In this document: positions 12,887-30,882 of the stretch, in pieces
Numbering within the stretch: the first letter of the stretch is position 1
Layout of the letters: every line of letters begins with the position of its first letter
NCBI GenBank assembly: GCA_035269475.1
Contig: DATFJD010000175.1
Location: 1-33,713, forward strand
Direction of reading: 5' to 3'
DNA from: Halalkalibaculum sp.
GTDB lineage: Bacteria; Bacteroidota; Rhodothermia; Balneolales; Balneolaceae
DNA: 33,713 nt
Position numbers and translations under genes: made by a program
The notes under the pieces: generated by a model
The model's database searches: none
Told to the model about the DNA's origin: nothing
Seen by the model: only the letters and a program-made list of their open reading frames with translations

Positions 12887-13498
12887 ATGATCGCAATTAT
12901 TAATTACGATGCCGGTAATCTTGCCTCCGTATCTAATGCACTGGACAGGCTTGACGAGAAGTATATTGTTTCCAATAAGCCTGAAGAACTGGAAGCGTCG
13001 GACGCCGTTATTTTTCCCGGCGTAGGCCATGCCCTTCCTGCCATGCAATCGCTGAAAAAACAGGGGCTCGATCACTTTTTAAAGGAAACCGACAAACCGG
13101 TTCTGGGTATATGCCTGGGCATGCAGCTTCTTTTTGAGAGTTCCGAGGAAGGGGATACTGAGGGACTTGGTATCATACCGGGCAAGCTTAAAAAATTTGA
13201 CGAGACCAGAGACAAGGTACCGCATATGGGCTGGAATACCTTTACTGAGACCACTGACTGTCCGCTTCTCAACGGCATCAGCACCCGGCAGTATTTCTAT
13301 TACGTGCACAGTTTCTATGCCCCGGTGAATGAATATTCACTGGCTTCCTGCCATTATATCAATGACTTTTGTGCTGTTGTTGGAAAGGATAACGTGATGG
13401 GTGTACAGTTTCATCCTAAGAAATCCGGTACCACCGGCTCCCTGCTACTTCAAAACTTTCTGGAATTTGTTCATGACAGGGTTGCCAAGGTAAAATAA
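12887..13498 (+). CDS. hisH: Imidazole glycerol phosphate synthase, glutaminase subunit
   Basis: GNLASV, FPGVG, GICLGMQ, VPHMGWN, YYVHSF. The usual QFHPEKS motif reads QFHPKKS. Confidence 0.95.
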   Translation: MIAIINYDAGNLASVSNALDRLDEKYIVSNKPEELEASDAVIFPGVGHALPAMQSLKKQGLDHFLKETDKPVLGICLGMQLLFESSEEGDTEGLGIIPGKLKKFDETRDKVPHMGWNTFTETTDCPLLNGISTRQYFYYVHSFYAPVNEYSLASCHYINDFCAVVGKDNVMGVQFHPKKSGTTGSLLLQNFLEFVHDRVAKVK

Positions 13499-13635: not shown

Positions 13636-14217
13636 ATGTCTCCCAGAACGGCCAATCAGAACGAAGAAATCAGGCAGCAGGCACGACAGCAAATAAGGGA
13701 TGCTGCCTTTGAACTTTTTGCGGCAAAAGGCTTTGCCAATACCGGCGTCCGCGCCATTGCCAAAGAAGCCGGGGTATCGAAAGGGCTGATCTACCACTAC
13801 TTTGAAGGCAAGGATGACATACTGCACGCTATTTTTGACGATCTCACCGATCTGGGTGACCGGGCAATGGATTTTCCGGACAACCTCTCTTCTTCAGAAC
13901 GCCTGCACAAGATGCTGAACATGATTTTCGGCTATATTAAACAGTCTACCGAAGTCCTTAGGCTGATGATTTCCCTCGCACTTCAGCCGGATGCCGTTGA
14001 AAAGCTAAAAGCTTCTATTGAAGCGTACAACGAACGGCAGATACGAATCCTCGCTCCTCTTTTTGAAGATCTTGGATACGAGAGTCCGGAAGCGGAAGCC
14101 TACTACCTCGCAGCCAAGCTGGATGGCATAACCCTGGGCTATATTACACTTGGTGAGGACTATCCTTTTGAAATGATGAAACAAAAAGTAATGAATGACT
14201 ATGACTCTGAAACATAA
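13636..14217 (+). CDS. TetR/AcrR family transcriptional regulator
   Basis: N-terminal HTH AAFELFAAKGFANTGVRAIAKEAGVSKGLIYHYF. Confidence 0.95.
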   Translation: MSPRTANQNEEIRQQARQQIRDAAFELFAAKGFANTGVRAIAKEAGVSKGLIYHYFEGKDDILHAIFDDLTDLGDRAMDFPDNLSSSERLHKMLNMIFGYIKQSTEVLRLMISLALQPDAVEKLKASIEAYNERQIRILAPLFEDLGYESPEAEAYYLAAKLDGITLGYITLGEDYPFEMMKQKVMNDYDSET

Positions 14218-14959
14218 AAAAGCTGCTGTGTTCTGTTTAGTGATGTTAGCAAGTACGCTACTGGCTCAGGCGCAGGATGCAACGGAAATCGTACGCCGGG
14301 CCGATGAGAAGGTACGGGGTGAGAGCTCCCGGGCTGAAATAACGATGGAGATTATCCGCCCCACCTGGAAACGAAGCATATCCATGAAGGCCTGGTCCCT
14401 GGGCATGGATTACAGCCTGATACTGGTAACCGCTCCTGCCCGGGATGAGGGTACGGCCTACCTTAAACGGGGCAATGAAATCTGGAACTGGCTGCCCGAT
14501 ATCAACCGCACCATTAAAATGCCGCCATCTATGATGAGCCAATCCTGGATGGGGTCTGACTTTTCCAATAATGATCTCGTTGAGGAGTCATCTATCGTTA
14601 CCGATTACGACCATACCCTGGCCGGAGACAGTACGCTTAGCAGTTATTCGGCCTATATAATTGAAATGATCCCAAAGCCCCAAGCTCCGGTCGTTTGGGG
14701 GAAAGTGGTAAGTTTTATTACCAAAGAGGAGTACCTGCAGCTAAGAACCGAGTTTTATGATGAAGATATGGAGTTGATTAAAATCATGGAGGGATCGGAA
14801 ATTGAGGAAATGGGCGGCCGCACCATACCGACCAGGATGGAGATGATTCCTGTTGACAAGGAAGGGCAGAAAACGGTGCTCCACTACCGGGATATTGAAT
14901 TCAATATTGATCTTTCTGATCGCTTTTTCAGCATTCAGAATATGAAACGAGTACAGTGA
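14201..14959 (+). CDS. LolA-like outer-membrane lipoprotein-sorting protein
   Basis: Signal peptide ending AQA; APARDEGTAYLK, SQSWMGSDFSNND and FFSIQNMKR typical of the family; start at 14195 or 14201, overlapping the tetR stop. Confidence 0.88.
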   Translation: MTLKHKKAAVFCLVMLASTLLAQAQDATEIVRRADEKVRGESSRAEITMEIIRPTWKRSISMKAWSLGMDYSLILVTAPARDEGTAYLKRGNEIWNWLPDINRTIKMPPSMMSQSWMGSDFSNNDLVEESSIVTDYDHTLAGDSTLSSYSAYIIEMIPKPQAPVVWGKVVSFITKEEYLQLRTEFYDEDMELIKIMEGSEIEEMGGRTIPTRMEMIPVDKEGQKTVLHYRDIEFNIDLSDRFFSIQNMKRVQ

Positions 14960-15025
14960 ACAGTGGGTCAGTGGGTCAGTGTGTCAGGGAACAGTGTGTC
15001 AGTTATCAGTTATCAGTATTCAGAG
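14954..15025 (+). repeat. Left tandem array (CAG-initiated 7/8-mers) of the four-helix-bundle cassette
   Basis: CAGTGAA CAGTGGGT CAGTGGGT CAGTGTGT CAGGGAA CAGTGTGT CAGTTAT CAGTTAT CAGTATT CAGAG; the first unit contains the upstream TGA stop. Confidence 0.9.
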
Positions 15026-15056
15026 AAGAAAATCAGATGCATACTTTATATATCAG

Positions 15057-15407
15057 TTATTTTTCTATGCGGGTTTTTTTGAGAATAGTGAACATTATTT
15101 TTGCAAGTTCATCTGCGTCCTTAAACAAACTTTCATACTGTTCAACACTGATGAAATCAGTGTCTTTTAATAATGATATCCAGAATTTGGTTTCAAGGCA
15201 TTCTTTATATGAAATTGAAATTTTTGAAGAGAAATCGGCTTTTGAAATACCTCCGTTGGCTTCAGCAATATTTGCCCCAATACTGGTGCCACATTTTAAT
15301 AACTGCCTGGACAAAACAAATTCTCGTTTTTCTTTACACAGATATTGATTTGTCTCAATAATTCTTATAGCAAAACGATATGCTTTCTGATAAAGGTTAT
15401 TTTCCAT
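15057..15407 (-). CDS. Four helix bundle protein (TIGR02436 / 23S rRNA IVP / bAvd-like)
   Basis: MENNLYQKAYRFAIRII...LSRQLLKCGTSIGANIAEA...SKADFSSKISISYKECLETKFWISLL; 116 aa from ATG at 15407; GGAG upstream; AT-rich; antisense to the host operon. Confidence 0.92.
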   Translation of the reverse strand: MENNLYQKAYRFAIRIIETNQYLCKEKREFVLSRQLLKCGTSIGANIAEANGGISKADFSSKISISYKECLETKFWISLLKDTDFISVEQYESLFKDADELAKIMFTILKKTRIEK

Positions 15408-15510
15408 AATTAAAATCTCCAACTTACTATTCAGGTTCGAATTCATATTTGTAAGACCGACAAACAAAGAACTCCTTACCAATTAACTTTAAATAATCAA
15501 TCGTAAAATG

Positions 15511-15553
15511 TTCACTGACACACTGATCACTGTTCACTGATAACTGATAACTG
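15511..15553 (-). repeat. Right tandem array (inverted) of the four-helix-bundle cassette
   Basis: TTCACTG ACACACTG ATCACTG TTCACTG ATAACTG ATAACTG, reverse complements of left-arm-type units; ends 3 nt before the next ATG. Confidence 0.9.
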
Positions 15554-15556
15554 AAA

Positions 15557-16780
15557 ATGTTGATATTTAAACTTGCGTGGCGGAATATTTGGCGGAATAA
15601 GCGGAGGACGATTATAACTACGCTTTCCATAGTCGTAGCTGTATTTCTATCGGCCATCACCCGTTCTACGCAGGAGGGCCAGTATGATAATATGCTCGAG
15701 AATACTGTGGGCATCTTTTCGGGGTACATCCAGATTCACCAGGATGGCTATCAGGATAACCCTACACTGGACAACAGTTTTGAAATCAGTGATTCACTGA
15801 TGAATATCGTCCGGTCGAAACCGGCTGTCAGCTCGGTGGTACCGCGTATCGATTCCTACGCCCTTGCAGCGACGCAGCACCAGAGCAGGCCGGCAATGAT
15901 TATGGGCATTGATGTCGAAGCCGAGAAGCAGCTGAGCGACCCGGTAAAAAATCTTGAGGAGGGCAGCTATTTCAACTCCAATAACGAACAGGCGGTCATC
16001 ATCGGCAAGGACCTCAGAACACGGCTCAATGCCCGGATCGGTGACAGCCTGGTGGTGATCGGGCAGGGCTATCACGGCATGAACGCGACAGGGCTGTACC
16101 ATATCAAAGGAACCGTCTCATTTCCGAACCCGGAAATGAACAAAAGCCTGGTATATCTACCCCTGGAAACGGCACAGTATTTGTTCTCAGCTGATAACCG
16201 ACTAACTGCCCTGGCGATCAATATTGACCATCCTGACGAGCTTGGCAACACGGTCGAAGCCCTCAGACGGGAATTAGCTGCCGGCGGGTATGAAGTGCTG
16301 GGCTGGCCGGAAATAATGCCGGAGCTAAAGCAAGCTATCCAGGTGGACCGGGGGAGCGGTGTTATCATCATTATGATTCTCTATATGATTGTCGGTTTTG
16401 GCGTACTGGGAACCGTACTGATGATGATTGCCGAACGTTATTACGAGTTCGGGGTCATGCTCTCCGTGGGAACGCCACGCAAGACCATTGCAAAAATACT
16501 TTCCCTGGAGGTTATTATTCTGAGCCTGATGGGTACACTCTTCGGTATCCTGCTGAGCATTCCCGTTGCCTGGTATTTCAATGTCAATCCCATTGACCTC
16601 TCCGGGGCCATGGCTTCGGCGGCAGAGCAGTACAATATGTCTCCCGTTCTTCAGTTTTCGGTATCTCCCGAAATTTTCACATCCCAGGCCCTGATCGTCT
16701 TCATCATCACCCTGCTCTTCAGCATCTACCCCATACTGAAAGCAGCCAAGCTGAACCCCGTTAAAGCCATGAAATCCTGA
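15557..16780 (+). CDS. ABC transporter permease (MacB/FtsX/LolE family)
   Basis: LAWRNIWRNKRRT, large periplasmic domain, ERYYEFGVMLSVG, KLNPVKAM. Confidence 0.93.
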   Translation: MLIFKLAWRNIWRNKRRTIITTLSIVVAVFLSAITRSTQEGQYDNMLENTVGIFSGYIQIHQDGYQDNPTLDNSFEISDSLMNIVRSKPAVSSVVPRIDSYALAATQHQSRPAMIMGIDVEAEKQLSDPVKNLEEGSYFNSNNEQAVIIGKDLRTRLNARIGDSLVVIGQGYHGMNATGLYHIKGTVSFPNPEMNKSLVYLPLETAQYLFSADNRLTALAINIDHPDELGNTVEALRRELAAGGYEVLGWPEIMPELKQAIQVDRGSGVIIIMILYMIVGFGVLGTVLMMIAERYYEFGVMLSVGTPRKTIAKILSLEVIILSLMGTLFGILLSIPVAWYFNVNPIDLSGAMASAAEQYNMSPVLQFSVSPEIFTSQALIVFIITLLFSIYPILKAAKLNPVKAMKS

Positions 16781-25065: not shown

Positions 25066-25707
25066 ATGGATATAAACAGTTTAGATTTTAAAAAAGGCGA
25101 CGGCCTCATTCCCGCAATTGTACAAGACGCAAAAACATACCGGGTGCTGATGCTGGGTTACATGAACGAAGATGCCGTGAAGCAGACCCTGGAAGATGAG
25201 CTGGTGACTTTTTTCAGCCGCAGCAAGGGACGCTTATGGACCAAGGGCGAGACCTCCGGCAACACCCTTCAGCTGGTGGACATGCAAGCCGACTGCGACA
25301 ACGACTCTATCCTGGTGCTGGCCAATCCAAACGGACCTACCTGCCATACCGGTGAAACATCCTGTTTCCATGAAAAGAAGTTTAAACCCAAAAAGCATAA
25401 ACTTGACTTCCTGCTCGACCTCGAAGCACTGATTTACGATCGCAAAGCGGAAATGCCCGACGGCTCCTACACAACTTACCTGTTCGATAAAGGCATCGAT
25501 AAAATTGCTCAAAAAGTAGGTGAAGAGGCCGTGGAAACCGTTATTGAATCAAAGAATAACAAGAAGAAAAAACTGGTGGGTGAGGTGGCCGACCTGCTAT
25601 TTCACCTGATGGTGCTGATGGCCGAGAAGGAGGTTTCCATAAAAAAAGTGGTGAAAAAGCTGAAAAAGCGGCACAAGAAAGGAAACCACAAACACTTGGG
25701 GGAGTAG
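25066..25707 (+). CDS. hisIE: Bifunctional phosphoribosyl-AMP cyclohydrolase / phosphoribosyl-ATP pyrophosphatase
   Basis: LWTKGETSGN, DCDND, PTCHTGETSCF, SYT, KVGEEAVE, ADLLFH. Confidence 0.97.
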   Translation: MDINSLDFKKGDGLIPAIVQDAKTYRVLMLGYMNEDAVKQTLEDELVTFFSRSKGRLWTKGETSGNTLQLVDMQADCDNDSILVLANPNGPTCHTGETSCFHEKKFKPKKHKLDFLLDLEALIYDRKAEMPDGSYTTYLFDKGIDKIAQKVGEEAVETVIESKNNKKKKLVGEVADLLFHLMVLMAEKEVSIKKVVKKLKKRHKKGNHKHLGE

Positions 25708-25711
25708 GTAG

Positions 25712-25998
25712 GAGGGATTGAGGGACTGAGGGATTGAGGGGTTGAGGGATTGATTTACTGATTTACTGAGGGATGGTATGGCAACCTATGCATTTTTTGG
25801 CAGCACCATTACCTCTGTTTCCACCGCTCTGCTGAGGAAACTAAGGGACAAAAAGTTGCCAAGCGCGAAAGCTTAACACAGCAAGTTGCTAAAAAAAGAG
25901 CGCCAACTTATTTCTATAGCAAAACTACTGAAATGGGAATTACCTCACCAACTCAGTAAATCAGTAAATCAATCCCTCAATCCCCCAATCCCTTCCTA
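25712..25998. repeat. Tandem-inverted octamer repeat element (GAGGGATT/GATTTACT) with ~180-nt spacer
   Basis: Eight octamers at 25712-25775; inverted array at 25952-25998; 25742-25770 and 25952-25980 are a perfect 29-bp inverted repeat. Confidence 0.9.
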
Positions 25999-30241: not shown

Positions 30242-30400
30242 GTGAAAAGCGAGAAGCGAGAAGCGAGAAGCGAGAAGAGAAATGAAAATGAATATTAATA
30301 ATCTCCTAAACGAAAATTATATTTCGGATTTTCTCCCTTCTCCCTTCTCACTTTTCACTTTTCACGTCTGCCGTTTCACGTTTCACATTTCACGTTTGCC
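30242..30400. repeat. Tandem-inverted heptamer repeat element after proC
   Basis: Left GTGAAAA (GCGAGAA)x4; right ten heptamers TTCTCCC TTCTCCC TTCTCAC TTTTCAC TTTTCAC GTCTGCC GTTTCAC GTTTCAC ATTTCAC GTTTGCC. Confidence 0.9.
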
Positions 30401-30468
30401 AACTGTCAGCCTTCCCTAACTTTTCTTAATTTCTGCCATCCGATTATTCAATTAACAAATTAAAGATT

Positions 30469-30882
30469 ATGAAAGTAACCGTACAGAAACTGGAAAAAGA
30501 CCTGCACATGGAAGCTGAAAATGAAGAAGGCGGACTGGTCAGGATGGATGGAAATACCAAAATAGGCGGGCTGGAAGGAGGCTTCAGCCCTATGCAGCTT
30601 CTGCTTGCGGGAATAGGCGGCTGCAGCGCTATTGATATCATCGGTATCCTGGAAAAACAGAAGCAGGACCTGAAAGATTTACGGGTGGAAGTCAACGGAG
30701 ATAAACAGAAGAAAGAGACCTACTCGGAATTCAAAACCATACACCTCAAGTTTATTTTTTCCGGCGATCTCGATCCCAGGAAGGTGGAACGTGCCATTGA
30801 CCTTTCCATCAACAAATACTGTTCGGTCTCCAAGGCACTGGAACAAGGATCCAAAATCACCCACAGCTACGAGATCATCTGA
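30469..30882 (+). CDS. OsmC/Ohr family protein (YhfA-like)
   Basis: SPMQLLLAGIGGCSAID and KYCSVS conserved cysteines. Confidence 0.93.
   Translation: MKVTVQKLEKDLHMEAENEEGGLVRMDGNTKIGGLEGGFSPMQLLLAGIGGCSAIDIIGILEKQKQDLKDLRVEVNGDKQKKETYSEFKTIHLKFIFSGDLDPRKVERAIDLSINKYCSVSKALEQGSKITHSYEII

Follow-up and report, generated by a model that had tools for sequence, protein, structure and literature searches.

A transposase-free four-helix-bundle gene cassette within inverted heptamer arrays, carrying a predicted competence-type promoter, in Balneolaceae

The 33,713-nt DNA stretch of Halalkalibaculum sp. analysed here (referred to as the window; contig DATFJD010000175.1 of assembly GCA_035269475.1, positions 1 to 33,713, forward strand) carries a small gene cassette between a LolA-like gene and the first gene of an ABC permease type. 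The cassette consists of an antisense four-helix-bundle gene of the TIGR02436/PF05635 family boxed in by inverted arrays of 7/8-nt repeats. Its occupancy is patchy among relatives, its repeat core is specific to the protein subfamily, and it contains a bipartite promoter-like motif that recurs in front of a defined gene set. That the cassette carries this motif, which is common to DNA-uptake genes, is new here. Because the motif is shared with DNA-uptake and recombination genes, the cassette is likely expressed during competence. The reading that we favour, although with somewhat less than even confidence, is that the cassette is timed by competence, has no transposase and encodes a ring protein that binds the repeats of the cassette. 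The literature search behind this report covered mainly the text of open-access papers, and statements on cited papers refer to the parts of their text that were available.

Cassette structure, protein and occupancy of the junction

The features of the cassette and its two host genes are as follows (window coordinates).

14195..14959, plus strand: upstream host gene, LolA-like (PF17131), whose last codon and stop (CAG TGA) form the first repeat unit
14954..15024, plus strand: left arm, nine whole CAG(T)-initiated 7/8-nt units and a partial tenth
15057..15407, minus strand: four-helix-bundle gene (TIGR02436/PF05635), 116 aa plus stop, 31.6% guanine plus cytosine (GC)
15449..15482, minus strand: bipartite promoter-like motif, with GTAAGGA at 15479-15473 and GGTCTTAC at 15458-15451, located 43 nt ahead of the start codon and predicted to be a sigma promoter of competence type
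15511..15553, minus strand: right arm, six units that begin with CAGT when read on the minus strand and are of TAACTGA type on the plus strand
15557..16780, plus strand: downstream host gene, FtsX/MacB-type ABC permease, with its start 3 nt beyond the right arm

The whole units of the left arm (14954-15020) are, in order, CAGTGAA, CAGTGGGT twice, CAGTGTGT, CAGGGAA, CAGTGTGT again, CAGTTAT twice and CAGTATT. The TGA of the upstream gene (14957-14959) falls within unit 1, and 3 nt separate the last right-arm unit from the permease ATG (15557), so that the junction is filled exactly, as an initial annotation of this DNA had described. The same annotation had reported an AT-rich antisense gene for a 116-aa protein, and the open reading frame (ORF) at 15060-15407 on the minus strand agrees with it (31.6% GC, against 48.2% in the lolA-like gene and 50.9% in the permease gene). 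Its six units on the right also stood; on the left, where it had counted about 10, there are nine whole units and a partial one. Scored as inverted 7/8-periodic chains of one 4-mer in the gene flanks, the arrays at this gene reached 6, whereas none of 1946 control ORFs of the genome exceeded 4 and only five reached 3; the arrays are thus beyond chance. The two arms folded together gave -48 kcal/mol, against -25.7 +/- 3.5 in 300 shuffles, but the fold of the whole 631-nt region reached only z = -1.71.

No transposase was found inside the cassette. Since the PF05635 gene is its sole cargo, classification as an insertion sequence or miniature inverted-repeat transposable element was rejected. No target-site duplication was seen by eye when filled and empty junctions of relatives, which did not include a strain-level empty allele, were compared. 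Strains of the source species differ in arm length by the insertion of whole units. A sigma-70 promoter scan returned four matches (3.0 expected), with none on the cargo strand, and in an Rfam search of the region no family came near its cut-off.

The 116-aa product scored 98.3 bits with TIGR02436 (cut-off 24), in line with the initial family call, and 98.6 bits with PF05635 (cut-off 33.8). An alignment-based structure model had four helices (predicted local distance difference test score 95.1) and matched the chains of 2RLD (BT_0352) with template modeling (TM) scores of 0.90-0.93 and a sequence E-value of 1e-28. The structure 2GSC (XCC0516) was matched as well. The match to Avd, the accessory protein of diversity-generating retroelements, was weaker (TM about 0.75, 15% identity). 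Assignment as Avd was rejected, as the protein scored 19.6 bits with the Avd profile NF033474 (cut-off 80) and the adjacent genes, to which this check was confined, are of TetR, LolA-like and FtsX/MacB type with no adjoining reverse transcriptase. The PDB entries 2RLD and 2GSC contain five chains each, from which a pentameric ring is predicted for the cassette protein. A search of phage records gave 2 weak matches in 50,697, and one of plasmid records gave 30 in 72,556; phages and plasmids are therefore not the main vehicle within those collections.

To follow the junction in relatives, 64 loci chosen via the host gene were compared (9 of 73 loci had been chosen via the cargo and were excluded). 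The junction was empty (15 nt or less) in 21 and short in 27; it held the gene in antisense in 8 and in sense in 4, a DUF559 nuclease gene in 2 and a duplicate of the permease in 2. These states are scattered over the host tree, and sister genomes are unlike each other: the junction is 1 nt long in L153 and a full cassette in L155, with 46 nt in G001 of the same genus. In L006, the entire interior including the motif is flipped between unaltered arms, and at the two DUF559 junctions the nuclease gene sits in its own hairpins nested within the CAGT arms. Arm-only remnants also occur. At 12 of the 21 filled junctions, but at none of the 21 empty ones, the host gene closes with Gln and stop, the codons that form the first unit. 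Close homologs of the gene occupy other junctions in related genomes (e.g. L035, whose genome has short arms only at the lol junction, L005). In a tree of the cargo, the junction copies are mixed with homologs from other sites (11 label changes, 4 of them forced by well-supported branches). As judged from these sequences, gain, loss, inversion and replacement all appear to be at work at the junction. The empty junctions, the arm remnants, both orientations and the alternative cargo within the same arms bear out the transposase-free cassette of the initial annotation, which had looked to empty junctions and different cargo in relatives for its support.

Several individual junctions deserve mention. 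The DUF559 cases (L164, L166) have C/G-run hairpins inside the CAGT arms, and in L159 the arms and one hairpin are present with the gene gone. The L143 junction is a remnant without the gene that retains the antisense motif (32.6 bits) and the right arm. Junctions L002, L011, L029 and L145 hold another hairpin of longer period, by eye like the flanks of the GxxExxY gene on C126. At an ABC ATPase/permease junction (G000:C405:6110-6310), arrays occur without a gene, and a full CAGT cassette is found there in G026 (L035).

The layout is not limited to this junction. The source genome has ten TIGR02436/PF05635 members, one of them at a contig end. As the initial annotation had anticipated for the family genes of this genome, six of the nine assessable paralogs score at least 3 for inverted arrays, each with its own unit, and the other three show arrays by eye. 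The paralog arms are without the GTT...AAC end triplets, and an integron-cassette reading was rejected for this reason. Among close homologs from other species, 61 of 80 score at least 3; among 28 more distant family paralogs, 11 score at least 3 and 21 at least 2. In 55 of 78 cases, the arm begins at the stop codon of whichever gene ends at the cassette. Broken cassette copies exist as well (e.g. L046, L400). Heptamer arrays of at least four units number 238 in the source genome (218 outside ORFs), against 15 in a shuffle, and the 31 inverted array pairs include 21 short ones without a gene and 4 with a four-helix-bundle gene between them. The cassette belongs to a widespread class which is barely described in the literature searched, where the combination of gene and heptamers was found only in the Coxiella 23S intervening sequence.

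Other arrays and hairpin-borne genes were also seen. The window itself has two further gene-less inverted heptamer array sets, at 25700-25992 (GGGA/TCCC) and 30247-30469 (GAGA and TCAC types). A gene for a 312-aa protein, transposase-like by eye, lies between inverted TGAG arrays at G000:C477:7352-8936. Genes of the GxxExxY, DUF559, GIY-YIG and Y1/RAYT types in G000 (C126, C187, C127, C38, C365, C420, C205, C224, C505) each have their own kind of inverted repeat, and several of them also carry the bipartite motif. The broken copy L400 (G328), a homolog of 61% identity, is surrounded by arrays with reversed polarity; TAACTGA tandem matches number 679 in its genome, which belongs to the Beggiatoaceae family.

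Bipartite motif and its gene set

The motif, which the initial annotation overlooked, lies between the right arm and the start codon. It reads GTAAGGA-N14-GGTCTTAC here and has the general form GTAAGGA-N14-RGTCWTAC. With a matrix trained on 24 sites from other genomes only, the cassette site scored 25.0 bits. A search of the source genome with this matrix gave 23 sites of at least 19 bits, compared with none in three shuffles. The genes downstream of these sites include six four-helix-bundle genes, an integron integrase gene, radC, ssb, comM, comF, recN, a TPR gene followed by ruvB, Y1/RAYT and GIY-YIG genes, and several genes for secreted or unknown proteins. Lower-scoring sites precede a GxxExxY gene (18.4 bits), a seventh four-helix-bundle gene (17.0 bits) and comEC (14.6 bits). 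The motif is thus found before seven of the nine assessable paralogs, against 22 of 2027 ORFs overall, and an eighth paralog lies directly behind radC. Genome G001 has 21 sites and adds comEA to the set; G104 has 16 and adds recA. In this set, the identification of comF is below the model cut-off, and the comEA and recA sites come from one genome each. In G000, G001 and G104, the genes with the motif include those for RAYT, IS200-type enzymes and the integron integrase. Of 30 family genomes, 16 have the motif before comEC at a threshold of 14 bits and 21 at 10 bits; the opposite strand gave none. The motif pattern is present in 17 of 17 Balneolaceae genomes (2-30 copies), whereas other families of the phylum mostly have 0-2 copies, near background.

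Where the upstream neighbour lies on the opposite strand and so offers no read-through, the motif is present in 29 of 36 cassettes; where it lies on the same strand and read-through is possible, in 10 of 41. In this comparison, kin are not independent and training sites are included. The motif in 17 of 17 antisense junction cassettes is largely circular, these being mostly training sites, and only the site of this window is independent.

One extracytoplasmic function (ECF) sigma gene (TIGR02937, 48.3 bits) bears the motif at its 3' end in 21 of 25 loci, and in no locus does the motif lie upstream of it. The order of this locus is sigma gene, motif at its stop, TPR protein and ruvB (G000:C301:2665-5222, L227-L229; L342-L366). 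Promoters of ECF type are marked by fixed spacing and asymmetry. The motif fits this type because its spacing is fixed, it is asymmetric, and it lies 17-60 nt from most start codons. With high probability, it is a promoter read by an alternative sigma factor, for which this ECF sigma gene is the candidate; the TPR protein behind it could be an anti-sigma factor, with feedback from the motif.

The set of genes under the motif is quite likely a competence regulon rather than an SOS regulon. The motif was absent before uvrA (0/20), dinB/umuC (0/14) and S24/lexA genes (0/10), and it differs from the Balneolaeota LexA box, which has been published as a direct repeat (PMC7739468); the SOS/LexA reading was rejected on both grounds. 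In Streptococcus pneumoniae, the late-competence regulon of ComX includes comEA, comEC, comF, radC, ssb and recA (PMC6560143), and one motif stands before the same six genes in Balneolaceae. The two regulons differ in motif and sigma candidate. Moreover, dprA is outside the predicted Balneolaceae set, which has four-helix-bundle, GxxExxY, GIY-YIG, RAYT and integron integrase genes. A competence-type regulon of Balneolaceae was not found described in the literature searched.

Two other groups of genes under the motif were recorded. The chromosomal integron integrase genes at G000:C555:12714-13673 (L218) and L206 score above the TIGR02249 cut-off and stand under the competence-type motif rather than a LexA box. 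Lamin-tail and type IX-secreted proteins and an unknown lipoprotein (G000:C12:3794-7213, C230:21-2450, C493:2399-3196; L188, L193, L201) are candidates for surface DNA capture.

Proposed repeat recognition, proposed mechanism and alternatives

The protein and the repeat core vary together. A CA[GAT]T core was found at 77 of 87 homologs of at least 55% identity, from eight named phyla, and at none of 36 homologs under 40%. The arm profile of the present locus is closer to those of homologs from other phyla (similarity 0.34) than to those of paralogs in its own genome (0.03). Within the subfamily, threonine occupies position 5 at 19 of 19 loci with CATT arms and at 0 of 58 with CAGT or CAAT arms, an association that we treat as a lead to a possible residue-to-base link. 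Its mutual information (0.81) exceeded all 300 within-phylum shuffles (maximum 0.60). Of 298 CAGT units that are 7 nt long, 267 have A in sixth place, and positions 5 and 7 are variable. Close homologs occur in Beggiatoaceae, Cyanobacteria and Bacteroidetes alike, with 59-76% identity conserved across phyla. Two cyanobacteria with CAGT cassettes have 1518 and 2001 TAACTGA tandem matches, and an acidobacterium of the CATT type has 2.

According to the mechanism that we favour, the host would turn on DNA uptake and the cassette gene would be turned on together with it. The predicted ring protein would bind its own heptamer arrays on single-stranded DNA, and host recombination via the flanking genes or resident arrays would then keep, flip, replace or insert the cassette. 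The protein probably binds the arrays, each subunit of an Avd-like pentamer taking one unit. In the Avd pentamer, bases are flipped out and lodged in the crevices that separate protomers (10.1101/2023.10.23.563531), which is a precedent for the reading of bases in such a position. That binding acts on DNA taken up or recombined in transformation, with conserved flanking genes or resident arrays as homology, is a nearly even call that leans slightly against. With homology provided in this way, neither a transposase nor a target duplication would be needed. Since IntI and RAYT act on single-stranded hairpin DNA, the mechanism also fits the company of the motif, namely the integron integrase, RAYT and small nucleases in their own hairpins. 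In a model of transformation, insertions are preferentially removed (PMC4774983), and a small insert would therefore have reason to act at that time. The widest form of the proposal is a class of cassettes riding natural transformation. Such cassettes would couple a host competence promoter with arrays read by their own pentamer via a residue-to-base code (e.g. Thr5 for CATT), recombination of incoming single-stranded DNA would be tilted to keeping or inserting the cassette, and the heptamer arrays that these genomes contain by the hundreds to thousands would be landing sites and scars. In this full form, the proposal is doubtful.

A number of results weigh against the favoured mechanism. On a tree built without the first eight alignment columns, the link of Thr5 with CATT amounts to 8 changes on the best tree and just 1 independent pair on well-supported branches. 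In Beggiatoaceae, occurrence of the protein was not tied to the TAACTGA repeat: matches came from 3 of the 17 genomes rich in the repeat and from 3 of the 38 poor in it (p 0.36), a test in which draft genomes may break at arrays. Cargo and host distances are weakly correlated (Mantel rho 0.11, p 0.19), yet pairs within a genus agree; long vertical residence with repeated loss therefore fits equally well as lateral spread. Contigs of 8 metagenome assemblies showed no inverted (strand-change) junction, and the 3 arm-to-arm skip joints seen in metagenome contigs, with sides of 22-27 nt and possibly from other loci, were not counted. Among the competence genes, the core late gene dprA had no motif within 1500 nt in 28 of 28 loci. 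In L239, L244, L247, L248 and L249, it stands without the motif directly behind a GTPase gene that we take to be obgE. Only 7 of 28 independent family paralogs have the motif within 300 nt, and 0 of 62 homologs outside Balneolales match the matrix, so that the link to competence is shown for one family only.

The initial annotation had given the arms another purpose, namely to pair in the operon mRNA and loop out the cargo. In such an RNA-level intervening sequence, which might also be cut by RNase III, the insertion would be harmless and the protein would chaperone the stem. The arms do form a long stem, the coincidence of arm start and stop codon would suit this arrangement, and the Coxiella 23S intervening sequence unites an S23p ORF, 5' heptameric repeats and RNase III cleavage (PMC4990558). 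When arms were swapped among ten Balneolales loci, however, the own right arm paired better than the foreign one in only four (p 0.43), with no in-register advantage; over all loci it did so in 22 of 30 (p 0.002), an excess that lineage-specific unit usage can explain. Because own arms pair no better than swapped ones in Balneolales, the arms seem to resemble a periodic array for binding rather than a stem under selection. In addition, many cassettes lie between convergent or divergent genes, where there is no read-through operon, cutting without religation would split the operon mRNA instead of coupling its genes, and the common promoter motif would be left unexplained. As the predicted promoter sits inside the arms, the antisense gene's own transcript would hold one arm only. 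Loop-out as the purpose of the arms is so far unsupported, and we regard an RNA-level intervening sequence as unlikely. It is likewise improbable that the proteins are host regulators, i.e. competence-induced ring RNA-binding proteins that bind gene-less arrays near stop or start codons and retune translation or termination. Action on periodic repeats in RNA is known from TRAP. The many arrays outside ORFs, the short gene-less array pairs and the conservation of the protein across phyla are in agreement with such a role, the antisense transcript could also damp the transporter operon, and TAACTGA repeats have been proposed as binding sites of a translational regulator (PMC4679880). A host regulator would not be expected to show patchy occupancy and orientation among sister genomes, nor to be replaced by a nuclease cargo inside the same arms, and most repeat-rich Beggiatoaceae genomes have no match to the protein.

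The presence of RAYT, IS200-type and integron integrase genes under the same motif (G000, G001, G104) could also point to a non-autonomous element moved in trans by a co-induced single-strand enzyme, either RAYT/Y1 or the integron integrase, with the protein as an accessory comparable to Avd for reverse transcriptase. Two Nostoc cassettes lie directly behind a Y1/RAYT-like gene (L129, L133; by eye). The Y1 genes of the source genome, however, are flanked by other hairpins and not by CAGT arrays, and one enzyme would have to accept all the arms that differ among paralogs of a single genome, which makes this explanation quite improbable. The last alternative is a near-neutral relic, an old vertical gene lost many times, whose arrays arose from slippage and were homogenised by template switching between arms. 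Whole-unit copy changes among strains, the match of cargo to host within a genus and the broken copies would all be accounted for, but the repeat core follows the protein across phyla and the motif stays on the cargo strand even in the flipped interior of L006. We consider a relic of this kind very unlikely.

Relation to known systems and significance

The closest known relative in layout is the 23S intervening sequence of Coxiella burnetii, which has an S23p ORF and, in its 5' part, heptameric repeats of variable copy number, and which is cut by RNase III (PMC4990558). Both elements are sporadic and of low GC, with a four-helix-bundle ORF within terminal inverted repeats and tandem heptamers whose number varies among strains. 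The present cassette differs in occupying a junction of protein genes, where it occurs in either orientation, and in having a predicted promoter of its own and an imperfect periodic array as stem. The Coxiella ORF was reported not to be made in vivo, and the available text describes no link to competence (PMC4990558). Despite its stem-forming terminal inverted repeats, the cassette was not classed as an ORF-bearing rRNA intervening sequence, in view of its site between protein genes and the lack of an Rfam family. By anatomy, it is a variant of the S23p-bearing intervening sequence outside rRNA.

TAACTGA direct repeats have been described in Beggiatoaceae, Cyanobacteria and Bacteroidetes, with the suggestion that the repeat-binding protein may itself be a mobile element (PMC4679880). 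The right-arm unit is the same heptamer and lies, as there, just upstream of a start codon. The main text of that paper has no mention of 'helix bundle', 'S23' or 'intervening', and its supplements could list repeat-adjacent genes. The available text on the heptanucleotide elements of Geobacter (PMC2700814) has no mention of S23 and was not used. Among solved structures, BT_0352 (2RLD) and XCC0516 (2GSC) are PF05635 proteins like the cassette protein, with entry titles that give no function or ligand, and Avd (4DWL, 8UB series) has the same fold as a pentamer, the cassette being without an adjoining reverse transcriptase. REP/REPIN elements with RAYT are likewise small intergenic inverted-repeat elements with many gene-less copies per genome; the arms of the cassette, by contrast, consist of 7-nt units in periodic array, and its gene does not encode a nuclease.

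Outside the cassette, the product of the hisH-like gene at 12887-13498 of the window reads FHPKK in place of FHPEK, which we take to be the expected sequence with the catalytic Glu; the difference may reflect a variant or be due to an error in the assembly.

The large family PF05635 has been encountered in structures and in rRNA inserts but is without an assigned function, and tandem heptamers such as TAACTGA are presented as an open puzzle in the available part of PMC4679880. The locus joins the two and, through the motif common to DNA-uptake genes, indicates when the gene would act. A competence-type regulon of Balneolaceae is likewise outlined by the motif. The four-state junction and the predicted competence-type promoter make the function of the cassette directly testable. 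If the full reading is true, the gene would spread without a transposase, integrase or nuclease of its own.

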